This document shows, piece after piece, positions 12,901 to 19,507 of a stretch of 64,000 nucleotides of DNA. The position numbers were made by a program, and so were the translations under genes. The notes beneath the pieces are model-generated. The model searched no databases. It worked only from the letters and a program-made list of their open reading frames with translations, and was not told the DNA's origin. The first letter of the stretch is position 1, and the number at the start of each line of letters is the position of its first letter. Origin of the DNA: a virus; the IMG/VR virus record IMGVR_UViG_3300008952_000003, positions 129,158 to 193,157 of that record. The stretch is one strand, 5' to 3'.

Positions 12901-13408
12901 AGCCCTGCAGGGACTAGCTGATGAACGCTTCACTGGTGGAAAACACTTCTGGACCGCCATATGTATTGATCGACCACGAAAGGAAAAACACCTAGCTGAG
13001 AATATAAAAGAGTACGCTCCAGAGGGAGATTTTTCTGACGAGGAGAAGATCGGGTATCTAGTTGAGCTAACTGGGGTATTTCCTTTCAACAAGGTCATGA
13101 AACCAGAAATATATAAACAATTAAATGAAGCATTTATTCCGCCCATCGCGAATTACGATCCAGAGCTTTGCGAAGTGGTGTGGTTTATTCCCCGAACAGT
13201 GACAACGAAGAGGACAAAAAATGGAAAGCCGTATTGGATTCTTGAAGTTGTCGATGATACGAACACCCTAACTCGCATTCGATGTTGGGGAGTACAGCAG
13301 TATGATAGGATCCACATCAATAAGCCATACATGGCAAAATTAGAGTATAACGAGAAGTGGGGATTTTCAACCAGAAGTCTCCGAAGAAATTTTAGGATTT
13401 TAGCTTGA
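9977..13408 (+). CDS. dnaE: DNA polymerase III alpha subunit (family C)
   Basis: PHP domain (LHAHS, TDHGNM), GRGSAAGSLVAY, PDIDYD, KFDVLGL, FSGYGFNKSHA, C-terminal OB fold. Confidence 0.97.
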   Translation: MKRKSSSIPFVGLHAHSVAGSIFDALGYPQEHMDFAFENGMSALALTDHGNMNGLPHQVLHAKKMREGGREFKPIFGIEAYFIPSLDEWREDYDAAKEDKKRRKTLSKDVTATTVEDEDASKKAVRNVLNRRRHLILLAQNQEGLNNLFAMISESFGPNNYYRYPRVDYKTLKKYSEGVIGASACLGGVYAGNYWENRENGEESVLEAMRETTKQMVDIFGDRWYGELQWNNIEEQHVLNKYIIKMHEEFGIKLISTSDSHYPNPKAWKDRELYRKLGWLGKPRPGYESAELPAGVEEIGYELYPRNGDQMWEAYKKYSEECGVEYDDDLILKSITETHDIAHQRIEDFMPDNTVRLPDFVIPPGETADSALQKFCFEGLRSLGLHTKEEYTDRLRMELGVISDRGFSKYFLTMNQISQKANEVMLTGPGRGSAAGSLVAYVLNITQVDPLKYGLQFSRFMRADATDYPDIDYDVADSMGLKEMLINDWGEDKVAPISNWNTLQLKSLIKDISKFYGIPFKEVNDVTSVMMVEAIGPAKLKHGIKTGIYNPTFEEVMEFSETLRGFLARYPHVKTHVEVLYGQVRSCSRHAGGVVVGEDLNSRMPLINSGGVRQTPWSEGQNVRHLEPMGFIKFDVLGLSTLKMIDGAIYHILRRHHGIENPTFEDIKDFYNKNLHPDVIDFDDQEVYKNIFHAGKWAGVFQFTEVGAQRFCQQAKPANLIDLAAITSIYRPGPLGANVHNDYVEARENAHRLKFINDEHREVTEETFGFLIFQEQIAELAHRLGKGLSLDEGNALRKVLTKKGTGKEAKVKKALHSKFVNGCTEKGIQRATAERLWETFEYFSGYGFNKSHAVSYCILSFQCAWLLNYYQVEWLAAFLDKEPETRKERAINVAKSFGLGIKSLDVNSSGRVWEISEDGKMLIQPLSSIKGLGDAAIDQIVGNRPFENIEAFLFNEKIIYSKLNKKSLDVLCRSGALQGLADERFTGGKHFWTAICIDRPRKEKHLAENIKEYAPEGDFSDEEKIGYLVELTGVFPFNKVMKPEIYKQLNEAFIPPIANYDPELCEVVWFIPRTVTTKRTKNGKPYWILEVVDDTNTLTRIRCWGVQQYDRIHINKPYMAKLEYNEKWGFSTRSLRRNFRILA

Positions 13409-13663: not shown

Positions 13664-14665
13664 ATGTTACAAGTTGATATTATTCTGGGAGTGCAGCACG
13701 GCGATGAGGGAAAGGGAAAAGTTACCCATCACTTATTGAGAGAGGGAGACTACACCCACTGTCTTCGCTATAACGGCGGCTGCAATGCGGGGCATACAAT
13801 TTATCATAACGGACAAAAGTTCGTCACACACCACATCCCAGCCGGTGTCTTCTTTGGGGTGAAGAGTATCATCGGCCCAGGGTGTATTGTTGACATTGAT
13901 AAATTCTTCGAAGAGATCCAGATGCTGAGGGATGGAGGAATCGACGTCGATAGCAAAATATTTATTGCTAAAAATGCACACGTCATACAGAGAAAGCACA
14001 CCGACGCCGACGCAAATGAGATTCGCTTAGGCACCACCAGGACTGGTAATGGTCCGTGCTATAGCGACAAATATGCCAGGGTTGGCTCTCGTGCAGAATC
14101 GTTTGCTCGCCTTGTGCCATACCTCGTCGATATGTACGAGGAATTTTATATTGCGAACAGTAGCGCCACAGTCTTGTGCGAAGGAGCCCAAGGCTTCGCC
14201 CTGGACGTTGACTGGGGAGACTACCCGCATGTCACCAGCAGCCACTGCACCACTGCTGGCGCCATGTTGAACGGCTTTCCTCCTAAATCAATACGAAATG
14301 TTTATGGTGTTGCAAAGGTATACGAAACGTATGTCGGCTCAAAGAAATTCCAACCTACCGGCGAGGTTTTTGAAAAAATCCAAGAAGCTGGGCAAGAGTA
14401 TGGGGCCACCACCGGCCGCAAGCGCCAATGCAACTGGATGAATTTAAGTTCCTTAAACCGAGCCTTGAAGATAAACGGAGTAGATCACCTAATAATCAAT
14501 AAGGTCGATGTACTGGAAGAGGTTGGAGAGTGGTCCGTGGAAATCGGATATCCAGAAAACAGTTCTATGTTATCTTTCTGCAATAAAGACCAGTTCTGTG
14601 ATTACATTACCCGATATTTTGACGGAGTGGATATCACATTTTCCTCAAGTCCCGAGCAGATCTGA
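13664..14665 (+). CDS. purA: adenylosuccinate synthetase
   Basis: QHGDEGKGK, NAGHT, EGAQG, GATTGRKR. Confidence 0.96.
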   Translation: MLQVDIILGVQHGDEGKGKVTHHLLREGDYTHCLRYNGGCNAGHTIYHNGQKFVTHHIPAGVFFGVKSIIGPGCIVDIDKFFEEIQMLRDGGIDVDSKIFIAKNAHVIQRKHTDADANEIRLGTTRTGNGPCYSDKYARVGSRAESFARLVPYLVDMYEEFYIANSSATVLCEGAQGFALDVDWGDYPHVTSSHCTTAGAMLNGFPPKSIRNVYGVAKVYETYVGSKKFQPTGEVFEKIQEAGQEYGATTGRKRQCNWMNLSSLNRALKINGVDHLIINKVDVLEEVGEWSVEIGYPENSSMLSFCNKDQFCDYITRYFDGVDITFSSSPEQI

Positions 14666-14905
14666 GTGAAAGTAAAATATCCGATACTCGATCTCCATGG
14701 TGAGGAACACGACCGCGCAGACTTCTTAATTGAAAAGTTCATCACAGACAATATTGATGAACTTCCGCTGAAGGTCATCACTGGGTATTCTGAGTTTTTT
14801 ATCGATAAGACAAAAGAAATTGTCAAGAAGCTAAATCTTTTCTGCTACAAAGAGAACTATACAAATGATGGTTGCTGGATTATTCTTCGCAGTCCGTGGT
14901 TTTGA
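14666..14905 (+). CDS. Smr/MutS2-domain small protein
   Basis: LDLHG...KVITG motif. Confidence 0.75.
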   Translation: MKVKYPILDLHGEEHDRADFLIEKFITDNIDELPLKVITGYSEFFIDKTKEIVKKLNLFCYKENYTNDGCWIILRSPWF

Positions 14906-14915
14906 GAGAAAGTGC

Positions 14916-14944
14916 TTGACAAATGTTAGCAATCATGCTATATT
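14916..14944 (+). promoter_or_regulatory. sigma70-type promoter
   Basis: TTGACA-17-TATATT upstream of nuclease/MTase pair. Confidence 0.8.
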
Positions 14945-14967
14945 AATATTATAACTTAGGAGGAAAC

Positions 14968-15474
14968 ATGGCAGGAGGCATTCAGCCGGGAACATCAGCC
15001 ACTACAACGGAATCAGTGTTGTCGGAACAAAAACATATTGATCTTGTTTTATACGCAATTTCTTTGCGTCCGAATCTTTCGCTTAAAAAATCTGTATTGA
15101 TTGAGGACATTGCTGATCATCCGGCAGAGTATTCTAGGTGCGCCAATGGTAAATCTCAACGATGGGATGCTGATGGCGGCTTTATCACAACAAACGACGG
15201 TCAGGTTATCGGTGTTTGTGAAAACAAATATCAGGGTACCCGACAAAACGCGTGCGAGAGGGTTTGTAAATATCTAACATTTCTAGACGCCCACCAGATG
15301 TTTGTTTCTTGCGATGGTCCGGGTTTCGAAAAGAAGAATGGCGAAGGATCTACTGGTCCACTCGTTGATATGCTTAAGCATGCTGGTGCAGTCGTACTAG
15401 AAAACGAAACCCATGAAAAGTTCTTGGAAGCCATCAATGGCTGGCTCGATTCATTAGAGGCAAGATATTTATGA
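14968..15474 (+). CDS. EcoRI/MunI-like type II restriction endonuclease (putative)
   Basis: DADGG...CENKYQG...NACER matches EcoRI PDGG...EAKHQG...NAIER; overlaps the MTase start. Confidence 0.65.
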   Translation: MAGGIQPGTSATTTESVLSEQKHIDLVLYAISLRPNLSLKKSVLIEDIADHPAEYSRCANGKSQRWDADGGFITTNDGQVIGVCENKYQGTRQNACERVCKYLTFLDAHQMFVSCDGPGFEKKNGEGSTGPLVDMLKHAGAVVLENETHEKFLEAINGWLDSLEARYL

Positions 15475-16517
15475 AGCCACTGTTTATGTGGGCTGGAGGC
15501 AAGAAAAAGCTTCTCAAGAAATACGAACCACACTTGCCTGACAATTTTGAATCTTATCACGAACCTTTCTTTGGTGGTGGTGCGATGTTTGTCTGGGCAT
15601 ACGAAAAGAATCCTAATGCAAACTTCTACATCAATGACATCAATAAACATATTATTGGTATCTATAAGGCCGTTCGAGACGATGTGGAAACGTTCTGCGC
15701 GCATTTAGACGAGCTTCAAAGGGAGTATCTTGAACTGCCTGGCCCAAAAGAGCAGGGCGGAGAGACGAACAAGACCCTGCAGAAAAAGTACGCTCGCCCA
15801 GATAAGGGACGAGGCCGTAGAGACTGGGAGTCAATTTACAGAGAGCAAAAGTCTCGAAGGCATTATTATTTCAAAGTTCGAGACGAGTATGCTTGGGATC
15901 ACAAGAAATTAACTCCAGTCAATGAAGCTGCCATGCTGTATTTTCTAATGAAGACTGGGTTTAACGGCGTCTGGCAACTGAACAAGAACACTAACGGCAG
16001 ATTCGGCACACCTTGTGGCCTAATGAAGCATACTGATAAAGTGTACGACAAAGAGAATGTCATGGAGTGGCACAGAGCCCTCCAGAATTGTGAAATAACT
16101 TCTGGCGACTACAAGCAAACTTTAAGAGATGTTGGTCCCGGCTCTTATATCTTCTTGGATCCTCCTTATCGTGGGGGCTTTGCGGACTATGGAACAGAAA
16201 AAGACGATAACTTCCAGCAAGAAGTCGTAAATTATCTTAACGCTGCTGCAGCCAGAAAGGCATACTGTATGCTATCCAATCGTGACATGGGTGACGGATT
16301 CTTCGAGGATCGAAAAGGAAACAATCAAATTGAATATTTTGATGTAACTTACACGGTTGGGCGAAGAAAGAAAGTAGGCGTGGATGAGAATGGAAAAGAT
16401 ATATTCGAGGCTGTAAAGGCAAAAGAAATTTTAATGATTGGACTTGACAAAGAAAGTCAAACGTGCTATATTAATAATACAAACAAACTAGGAGTGTTAA
16501 ATGGGAACTGGATTTGA
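15471..16517 (+). CDS. dam: DNA adenine methyltransferase (Dam/D12 family)
   Basis: WAGGKKKL, EPFFGGG, INDIN, LDPPY. Confidence 0.93.
   Translation: MKPLFMWAGGKKKLLKKYEPHLPDNFESYHEPFFGGGAMFVWAYEKNPNANFYINDINKHIIGIYKAVRDDVETFCAHLDELQREYLELPGPKEQGGETNKTLQKKYARPDKGRGRRDWESIYREQKSRRHYYFKVRDEYAWDHKKLTPVNEAAMLYFLMKTGFNGVWQLNKNTNGRFGTPCGLMKHTDKVYDKENVMEWHRALQNCEITSGDYKQTLRDVGPGSYIFLDPPYRGGFADYGTEKDDNFQQEVVNYLNAAAARKAYCMLSNRDMGDGFFEDRKGNNQIEYFDVTYTVGRRKKVGVDENGKDIFEAVKAKEILMIGLDKESQTCYINNTNKLGVLNGNWI
16444..16472 (+). promoter_or_regulatory. sigma70-type promoter
   Basis: TTGACA-17-TATATT in the 3' end of the MTase gene. Confidence 0.8.
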
Positions 16518-17936: not shown

Positions 17937-18470
17937 ATGATTTTAGAGTATTACCGCACACGACCGAATGCTATTCCTCCAACCCGCGCAAATCCATCAG
18001 ACGCGGGATTGGATGTGTATTATAATCCAGAACACCCCCAGGAATTGGGGTTGAATCTGCGCCCAGGCGAGAGTAAGTTGTTTCCCACTGGTCTTAAATT
18101 CGGAGTGCCTCACGGCTATATGCTGGAGGTAAAGAATCGCAGTGGAAATGCATCGAAACGAAGTTTACTTGTTGGTGCCTGTGTTATAGATTCTGGATAT
18201 GATGGCGAGGTTTTTGTGAATCTCCATAATGTGGGGACGGAGACTCAATTTGTGAAAAGAGGAACGAAGGTTGCTCAAATCGTAATGGTACCGGTTGTAC
18301 ACTTCCGAGCGCTTGAGACAAATCGAGACAATCTATACGATTGGTATCCGATTACGATGAGTGGTCGCGGCGATGGTGCCCTTGGCTCAACGGATAATGA
18401 GAGCCCCCCACAAAACTCAATCGATTCTCGTGACACCCCCGGAAGCTGGGAACTTGGAGATCCTACATGA
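17937..18470 (+). CDS. dut: dUTP diphosphatase
   Basis: DAGLD, NRSG, GACVIDSGYDGE, RGDGALGST. Confidence 0.96.
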   Translation: MILEYYRTRPNAIPPTRANPSDAGLDVYYNPEHPQELGLNLRPGESKLFPTGLKFGVPHGYMLEVKNRSGNASKRSLLVGACVIDSGYDGEVFVNLHNVGTETQFVKRGTKVAQIVMVPVVHFRALETNRDNLYDWYPITMSGRGDGALGSTDNESPPQNSIDSRDTPGSWELGDPT

Positions 18471-19507
18471 AGATGAGAAAATGCTTATCATACGATGACG
18501 TGTTGCTCGTGCCTCAGTATTCTGATATAGTGTCACGATCCGAGGTAGACATTACAACGAGCCTATCTCCTGATTTAATCTTTGAATTTCCGGTGATCTC
18601 TTCGCCTATGGATACGATCACAGAAGATGATATGGCGGCTACCATGTCATCATTGGGAGGCCTGGGAGTTATCCATCGATATAACACGATAGAAGCCCAG
18701 TGTGATTTGGTGAGATCGGTAAAAGTCTCCTCCCCTGGCGCCACCGTATCCGCAGCTATTGGGGTGACTGGAGACTATATGGAGAGGGCCCAGTCGCTCG
18801 TCCGTGCTGGAGCAAGCATTCTTTGTTTGGATGTTGCTCACGGTCACCACATTCTTATGAAAGATGCACTTACGAGCGTTAGATCAATCTTTAATGAGCG
18901 CCTGCACATAATGGCTGGAAATGTCGCGACCAGGAAGGCCGCCGAGGATCTAGCAAAGTGGGGAGCAGATTCGATTAGGTGCAATATAGGTGGCGGTTCA
19001 ATTTGTTCCACGCGAGTTCAGACTGGTCACGGCCTTCCCGGATTTCAAACAATCGTAGATTGCTTTGATGCTACCTTTAATCGCGATATCAAAATTATCG
19101 CTGATGGGGGAATTCGAAATAGTGGGGATATTGTAAAGGCCCTCGCCGCTGGCGCCGACTTTGTGATGGTCGGGTCTCTGTTTTCTGGCACGTCGGAGAC
19201 CCCAGGGAAAATAATCAGAGATAAGGAAGGAAATAGCTTTAAGGCATATCGCGGAATGGCATCCTCAGAGGCACAAAGAAACTGGCGAGGACACACCAGT
19301 TCTCTGGAGGGTGTCTCCGCATTGGTTCCGTTTCGTGGCTCCGTCGAGAACATAGTAGATGAACTAAAGGTCGGAATCCGCAGTGGCCTCTCCTATTCTG
19401 GAGCTAGGAATATCGACGAATTGCAGTCAACCGCCGAGTTCGTTGTGCAGACATCTTCCGGCTTGGTGGAGAGTGGCACCCACATTAATGGCAGGTTCAG
19501 TGGCTGA
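18467..19507 (+). CDS. guaB: IMP dehydrogenase / GMP reductase family (no CBS domains)
   Basis: SSPMDT, GGGSICSTR, ADGGI, YRGMAS. Confidence 0.9.
   Translation: MKMRKCLSYDDVLLVPQYSDIVSRSEVDITTSLSPDLIFEFPVISSPMDTITEDDMAATMSSLGGLGVIHRYNTIEAQCDLVRSVKVSSPGATVSAAIGVTGDYMERAQSLVRAGASILCLDVAHGHHILMKDALTSVRSIFNERLHIMAGNVATRKAAEDLAKWGADSIRCNIGGGSICSTRVQTGHGLPGFQTIVDCFDATFNRDIKIIADGGIRNSGDIVKALAAGADFVMVGSLFSGTSETPGKIIRDKEGNSFKAYRGMASSEAQRNWRGHTSSLEGVSALVPFRGSVENIVDELKVGIRSGLSYSGARNIDELQSTAEFVVQTSSGLVESGTHINGRFSG

Follow-up and report, generated by a model that had tools for sequence, protein, structure and literature searches.

The restriction endonuclease MunI (C^AATTG; PDB 1d02; PF11407), a small enzyme of 202 amino acids from the EcoRI branch, carries the recognition element GNAxER and reads AATT, as does EcoRI (G^AATTC; PDB 2oxv/1eri/1ckq; PF02963). 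The catalytic residues of EcoRI are D91, E111 and K113; its Asn141, Ala142 and Arg145 touch the inner A:T pairs, Ala142 being wedged between the central pairs; and EcoRI, MunI and MluCI have been grouped as possibly mosaic relatives (PMC4081073). EcoRI-like operons have the restriction gene and then the modification gene on one transcript, and the same order is found in the gene pair described here (PMC5896346). This pair lies in a stretch of 64,000 nucleotides (the window), i.e., bases 129158-193157 of the IMG/VR record IMGVR_UViG_3300008952_000003, which has 193,157 bases, is rated complete and comes from an uncultured marine phage. The first open reading frame (ORF A) encodes a small nuclease and the second (ORF B) a Dam-family methylase. 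The two genes probably form an active type IIP restriction-modification (R-M) cassette, since a nuclease with the EcoRI fold and with strictly conserved catalytic and base-reading residues shows a tight and mobile linkage to the one methylase that the genome has. The features of the cassette are as follows.

14916-14944, plus strand: putative sigma-70-like cassette promoter, with TTGACA at 14916-21, a spacing of 17 nucleotides and TATATT at 14939-44; extended -10 (TGC-TATATT)
14958-14963, plus strand: ribosome-binding site AGGAGG, 4 nucleotides 5' of the nuclease ATG, as read from the sequence
14968-15474, plus strand: nuclease gene (ORF A), 168 amino acids, ATG start
15172-74, 15220-22, 15226-28 and 15247-61, plus strand: nuclease motif codons for D69, E85, K87 and N94-R98, respectively
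15471-15474, plus strand: ATGA overlap of 4 nucleotides between the nuclease TGA (15472-15474) and the methylase ATG (15471-15473)
15471-16517, plus strand: methylase gene (ORF B), 348 amino acids, D12/Dam-family N6-adenine DNA methyltransferase
near 15567-15590 and at 16158-16169, plus strand: methylase motifs FxGxG and DPPY, respectively

The start of the nuclease is confirmed by its conserved N-terminus, M-x-GGIQPGT. The gene pair has a G+C (guanine plus cytosine) content of 0.43-0.44, the same as the window, and the long ORFs of the window all have the same direction. The preliminary description of this locus had given the nuclease ORF its own promoter and an overlap of 4 nucleotides with the methylase start. 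Both are found again: the putative promoter matches 11 of the 12 consensus positions of sigma-70-like -35 and -10 elements, and the overlap is the ATGA listed above. Such a stop/start overlap may couple the translation of nuclease and methylase.

The relatives of ORF A come almost entirely from metagenomes. Sixteen close relatives are contained in 5.8 billion protein clusters, and a phmmer search of 1.84 billion proteins without length restriction, meant to include fused or split forms, gives 39 matches, nearly all of them of 150-210 amino acids, metagenomic and unnamed. These matches have 67-209 amino acids, save one of 1206 (P0054); the latter, the only long match, shows five weak stretches against residues 9-70 (E 9e-4) and could be a repeat protein that has the N-terminal motif in common with the family. 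With the single sequence of ORF A no match is obtained by phmmer in the PDB at E up to 10, nor by tblastn among cultured phages and plasmids. No relative is found in 185,579 prokaryote species genomes by one scan, which reaches close relatives only.

Across the alignment of 37 diverse family members, invariance is confined to E20, D69, K87, Q89, N94 and R98. G8, S16, G71, A95 and G117 are near-invariant, and E85 is kept in at least 90% of the close set. After addition of the cyanophage members described below, D69, E85, K87, Q89, N94, A95 and R98 are still invariant. When the profile of the 37 homologues is run with HMMER against 177,635 PDB sequences, EcoRI chains only are retrieved (E 1.7e-4). 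The profile alignment places D69 on D91, E85 on E111, K87 on K113, Q89 on Q115 and N94-A-x-E-R98 on N141-R145, i.e., of the six residues that never vary in the family, five fall on EcoRI D91, K113, Q115, N141 and R145. ORF A itself reads D69-G70-G71 (15172-80), E85-N-K87-Y-Q89-G90 (15220-37) and N94-A-C-E-R98 (15247-61). The preliminary description had recognized D-GG, E-x-K-x-QG and NA-x-ER in the order of the EcoRI motifs, and the profile pairs the residues as it proposed. It had also pointed to the small size of the protein, rightly: 168 amino acids against 277 for EcoRI. The inner arm of EcoRI, of about 20 residues, is missing, since only four residues (G90-Q93) stand in place of the approximately 24 found in EcoRI between Q115/G116 and N141; the outer arms and the other parts with which EcoRI wraps DNA are absent as well.

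Two AlphaFold2 models of the nuclease were compared with 48,161 chains by VIA-align, and were also searched with Foldseek. The first, from an alignment of 14 sequences, has a predicted local distance difference test score (pLDDT) of 85 and a predicted template modelling score (pTM) of 0.83; the second, from 37 sequences, has a pLDDT of 93.5 and a pTM of 0.87. EcoRI is ranked first of the 48,161 chains for both models: Z 10.3 with a root mean square deviation (rmsd) of 2.6 Å over 144 residues for model 1, and Z 11.2 with 2.5 Å over 143 residues for model 2. The expectation of an EcoRI/MunI-like PD-(D/E)xK fold is thus borne out by the predicted structures. BstEII (G^GTNACC; PDB 9ibq) follows with Z 9.6 for model 1 and Z 9.5 (rmsd 6.2 Å) for model 2. 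MunI (Z 7.5 and 8.1, with 132-135 residues aligned) is structurally farther from the phage nuclease than EcoRI. With Foldseek, BstEII and EcoRI lead for model 1, MunI being at rank 17, and the top eight for model 2 consist of BstEII, EcoRI (five entries) and MunI (two chains); BstEII is the top match (E 1.6e-4 and 9e-4) and the probability for MunI is 0.98-0.99. However, BstEII differs from the phage family: it has no sequence-profile match to it, is longer (286 amino acids) and has another kind of site. EcoRI is both the best structural match and the only significant profile match, and shares D...ExKxQ(G) and (G)NAxER with the phage nuclease.

In the predicted structure E20 is localized on the first helix (H14-32). 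Many PD-(D/E)xK enzymes carry an extra acidic metal ligand on that helix, and E20 may be such a ligand. A language-model search, used for leads only, gives MunI-domain and EcoRI-domain clusters of 174-206 amino acids as the nearest named ones, the very nearest being a MunI-domain family of 174 amino acids.

The nuclease and the methylase are kept adjacent across genomes, as in type II R-M systems. In five loci (L001-L005) with a nuclease about 60% identical to that of the window, a D12 methylase of 287-288 amino acids starts at the nuclease stop or within four bases of it. In L008, with a nuclease about 35-37% identical, a homologous D12 methylase is likewise directly downstream. The overlap of 4 nucleotides is found also in L004, L005, L008 and some isolates of the cyanophage S-RIM2. 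ORF B and the partner methylases are homologues, and the identities of both proteins to those of the window fall in parallel: 62%, 61%, 37% and 28% for the nucleases of L001, L004, L008 and S-RIM2, and 60%, 58%, 50% and 45% for the respective methylases. L001 and L004 come from related phages (identity of 46% for RecA, 54% for the 5'-3' exonuclease and 56% for DnaB). In these two the pair is placed upstream of RecA (directly so), the exonuclease and DnaB, and in the window about 11 kilobases (kb) downstream of these genes, counted from DnaB. Since its genomic position differs between related phages, the pair has moved as a unit.

The nearest cultured relatives of ORF B given by tblastn (41% identity) are in the T4-like cyanophage S-RIM2. 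There, a «hypothetical protein» of 178 amino acids is encoded directly upstream of a «DNA adenine methylase», with the overlap mentioned above in some isolates. This ORF belongs to the nuclease family (hhalign probability 98.4%, E 7e-15; plain hmmsearch E 1.5e-15), and homologues of the S-RIM2 type are found in 65 phage records, each of a Synechococcus phage. Another member is gp11 of S-CREM2, labelled «restriction endonuclease EcoRI» in GenBank; the family is thus partly recognized already, through this label. The S-CREM2 paper does not discuss gp11, and no published characterization of the family was found. The S-RIM2 and S-CREM2 nucleases are 26-28% identical to the window protein and carry GNAIER, identical to EcoRI. 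A few S-RIM2 isolates have the two genes side by side with the 4-nucleotide overlap retained (e.g., L010, KX349240.1).

The second gene is a Dam-family methylase, as the preliminary description had it: ORF B has a match to PF02086 (E 4.5e-33) and one of 160.2 bits to the dam-family model TIGR00571 (cut-off 114.85). It is the sole methylase of the PF02086, PF01555 and PF00145 classes in the 193-kb phage genome. The S-adenosylmethionine-binding and catalytic motifs, FFGGGAMF and DPPY, are intact, and do not vary between the partner methylases. The operon of a nuclease with a Dam-family methylase that had been put forward is thus supported by the sequence profile, by the predicted fold and by the linkage of the genes.

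Of the residues with which E. coli Dam recognizes GATC, R124 serves for the fourth base pair, at which discrimination is abolished once R124 is lost, and K9 for the first; Y119, N120, L122 and P134 act on the inner A-T pairs (PMC4417163). When ORF B is aligned to E. coli Dam (2g1p), R124 is replaced by Q169 and K9 by M6, and Y119, N120, L122 and P134 are kept or conservatively exchanged (F164, N165, V167 and P181, respectively). With the equivalog model for E. coli Dam (NF008152) the score is 58 bits, for a cut-off of 441. ORF B thus does not look like an orthodox GATC Dam, and the pattern would fit an xATy site other than GATC. The evidence for this is weak, since the related methylases of phages S-H34 and Mydo, which lack a partner nuclease, also have Q at the position of R124; a Q at this position was therefore rejected as a marker of nuclease-partnered methylases. 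The closest relative of ORF B with a solved structure is DpnM, of the DpnII system. Unlike in that system, the GATC-reading residues are missing from the phage methylase, and PF04556 (DpnII) has no match to ORF A at E up to 1 and none in the 37 family members at E up to 10.

It must be noticed that ORF B is about 60 amino acids longer than its homologues of 287-288 amino acids, with a basic, low-complexity insertion of about 35-40 residues after residue ~90. The codons of its C-terminal extension are those of the following promoter and ribosome site (16443-16500), and the extension looks like a fortuitous read-through.

Taken together, the comparison of the nuclease with EcoRI and MunI shows that: (i) the catalytic D...(D/E)xK, the (G)NAxER recognition element and an EcoRI-like fold of the alpha branch are present; (ii) the score stays below the Pfam gathering level and the DNA-wrapping inner and outer arms are missing. 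Some results weigh against an R-M cassette, or against its proposed site. Searches of Pfam, PHROGs, NCBIfam and PADLOC with the sequence of ORF A give noise only (E 0.03 or worse). PF02963 (EcoRI) has no match to ORF A at E up to 1 and is reached by only 2 of the 37 members (best E 0.011). Since the thresholds are missed for PF02963 and also for PF11407 (MunI), which none of the 37 members matches at E up to 10, the nuclease is a remote EcoRI/MunI relative, outside the families as Pfam defines them. The support for R-M comes from homology, fold, conserved residues, gene linkage and the movement of the pair as a unit. BstEII, which reads GGTNACC, is nearly as close in structure as EcoRI, thus the fold alone does not set an AATT site. 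The phage genome contains 1359 AATT for 1532 expected (0.89), which is uninformative on specificity; the same holds for GATC (0.83) and for the AATT- or GATC-containing hexamers (0.98-1.5), which were examined for site avoidance too.

The linkage also has its exceptions. The methylases of S-H34 and Mydo, of the same subfamily as ORF B, have no nuclease gene detectable nearby, thus the methylase can stand alone and its Q is not peculiar to such pairs. Conversely, in L007 (nuclease identity of 41%) no methylase is found within 3.8 kb downstream, in a contig of only 5 kb. Most S-RIM2 isolates have an ORF of 351 amino acids between the two genes, with a weak match to DUF6551 (E 2.7e-4; e.g., L012, S-RIM2 R1_1999, NC_020859.1 40451-41506), and in S-CREM2 two genes, one for a pyrimidine-dimer glycosylase and the other a small ORF, separate gp11 from the methylase, the pair remaining within 1 kb. 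Such cases would be expected if the nuclease were active in something other than restriction, i.e., recombination, repair, DNA processing or selfish homing, the methylase being an independent anti-restriction orphan sharing the operon; the location of the cassette in replication and nucleotide-metabolism modules and the presence of the PD-(D/E)xK homing endonuclease I-Bth0305I among the weaker fold matches (Z 6.7-6.9) go in the same direction. Nevertheless, this explanation is unlikely: NAxER, with which EcoRI reads bases, is invariant in the family, which is unexpected for a structure-specific nuclease; the pair stays together at nuclease identities of 26-62% and moves as a unit; and orthodox type IIP enzymes head the fold matches.

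The partnership with a Dam-family methylase would also suit a MutH-like nickase, directed by methylation, that nicks the unmethylated strand of hemimethylated sites to tell the strands apart in the mismatch repair or replication of the phage. MutH, too, is a small PD-(D/E)xK protein, and the phage nuclease is of roughly its size. However, neither MutH nor Sau3AI is among the top 50 structural matches, where EcoRI, BstEII and MunI lead, and the methylase has lost the residues reading GATC; of the explanations considered, this one appears the least probable. The very small size of the protein and the absence of the EcoRI arms could rather suggest a DNA-binding protein on an EcoRI scaffold devoid of catalysis, acting as a regulator or as a specificity helper of the methylase, and a few family members indeed have S or D at the position of E85 and an altered DGG. 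That is very improbable, for the catalytic residues are conserved (D69 and K87 invariant, E85 kept as stated above, E20 on the first helix), which favours a catalytic protein over a mere binder. The active type IIP cassette thus remains the preferred explanation.

As regards the site, the sequence suggests a known specificity class, i.e., an AATT core, since NAxER is retained, the arms and the contacts to the outer bases have disappeared, and the methylase has the pattern of a non-GATC xATy. The chances are about even that the site has such a core, possibly a bare ^AATT as for MluCI and Tsp509I, with N6-methyladenine on the inner adenine. By analogy, a minimal enzyme keeping the AATT-reading element may be expected to behave like the four-base AATT cutters MluCI, Tsp509I and Sse9I.

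We infer the catalytic activity, the dimer state, the AATT specificity, the timing and the biological role of the cassette as follows. The minimal nuclease of the EcoRI fold would keep the metal-binding and catalytic residues E20, D69, E85 and K87 together with the N-A-x-E-R that reads the inner AATT, and would most likely act as a homodimer. It would cut an unmethylated AATT-core palindrome, possibly bare AATT, leaving 5' overhangs of 4 nucleotides, while the coupled Dam-like methylase would place N6-methyladenine in the same site. The incoming phage DNA would be already methylated and the replicating DNA hemimethylated, which would protect all 1359 AATT of the phage genome; unmethylated DNA of the host or of a co-infecting phage would be cut. 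The likely pay-offs would be the breakdown of the host chromosome, which would be in keeping with the PurA-like, dUTPase and GMP-reductase-like genes nearby, and the exclusion of unmethylated rival phages.

The promoter at 14916-14944 would drive the nuclease-methylase cassette. It resembles the type used by the host RNA polymerase holoenzyme, thus the cassette is probably read early. It is one of eight members of a promoter family (CTTGACA-N14-TGCTATATT) in the window, each of them on the plus strand; the number expected is 0.02.

2267, 13404, 14915, 16443, 21055, 33266, 52947 and 55359, plus strand: copies of the promoter family, CTTGACA-N14-TG(C/T)TATA(T/A/C)T
16443-16472, plus strand: next family promoter, exact CTTGACA-N14-TGCTATATT, inside the methylase ORF at its 3' end; marks where the cassette ends downstream

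The copies at 13404, 14915 and 16443 are exact, bracket the gene pair and have extra flanking similarity common to the three. The eight promoter-like sites probably split the region into transcription cassettes.

The flanking genes encode a PurA-like protein of 333 amino acids (13664-14665), a dUTPase (17937-18470) and a GMP-reductase/IMPDH-like protein (18467-19507). The first reaches 272 bits with the PurA model, for a cut-off of 402, and 122 bits with that of PurZ, for a cut-off of 300; it would thus be an atypical PurA and no clear PurZ, and a PurZ (2-aminoadenine) genome is unsupported, the PurZ score being below the cut-off. An ORF of 79 amino acids (14666-14905), directly 5' of the cassette promoter, has a very weak match to the Smr domain (E 0.12, 12.9 bits for a cut-off of 25.7).

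Several palindromes are absent or nearly absent from the whole genome (G000). The observed versus expected numbers are 0/29.5 for CTCGAG, 0/19.3 for GAGCTC, 0/8.5 for CCTAGG, 0/8.1 for GTGCAC, 0/9.8 for TACGTA, 1/13 for CCCGGG and 1/12.9 for CAGCTG. It looks as if the phage avoided restriction sites of its host in these six-base palindromes, which could thus give a hint at the R-M repertoire of the host.

In phage T2, an ORF of 181 amino acids just 5' of dam (L016, AP018813.1 15995-16540, minus strand) is annotated «head outer capsid protein», a label that looks like a mis-annotation. It has I-E-I-K-H-Q and then T-A-I-D-S at the places of ExKxQ and NAxER of the family. When compared with the family by hhalign, this single sequence gives no significant match (probability of 1%, E 0.056, over only 24 columns around ExKxQ).

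If the nuclease is active, it is among the smaller orthodox restriction enzymes and a natural «minimal EcoRI», which would show the parts of the EcoRI scaffold that are sufficient for reading and cutting a site. In that case abundant marine phages, including cultured cyanophages (S-RIM2), would gain a means of degrading host DNA or of excluding competitors, and phage «DNA adenine methylase» genes, usually annotated as orphan or anti-restriction, would have to be reread. Neither Pfam nor PHROGs has a name for the nuclease family, thus most of its copies are annotated as hypothetical. Its description is useful for the annotation of marine phages. A wider proposal, which is tentative and rather less likely to hold than not, is that the cassette would give phages a discrimination between self and non-self DNA without hypermodified bases: an early, frequent-cutting (^AATT) mini-enzyme with its Dam-like methylase would shred the host chromosome, so that its nucleotides can be recycled, and destroy co-infecting phages, as a mobile two-gene unit spread through marine phages, T4-like cyanophages included.

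The closest functional likeness of this proposal is to the chloroviruses, which degrade host DNA with frequent-cutting, virus-encoded R-M pairs. The degradation of host DNA is the role proposed also for the phage cassette, which could be the bacterial-virus counterpart of these systems. As for EcoRI, the phage methylase is an alpha-class, Dam-like enzyme and the partner of EcoRI is of the M.EcoRI type; moreover, unlike EcoRI, the phage nuclease family has been seen in phages only so far. The working principle is that of an orthodox type II system and no new principle is involved: the cassette is a small, phage-only form of a known kind of system.

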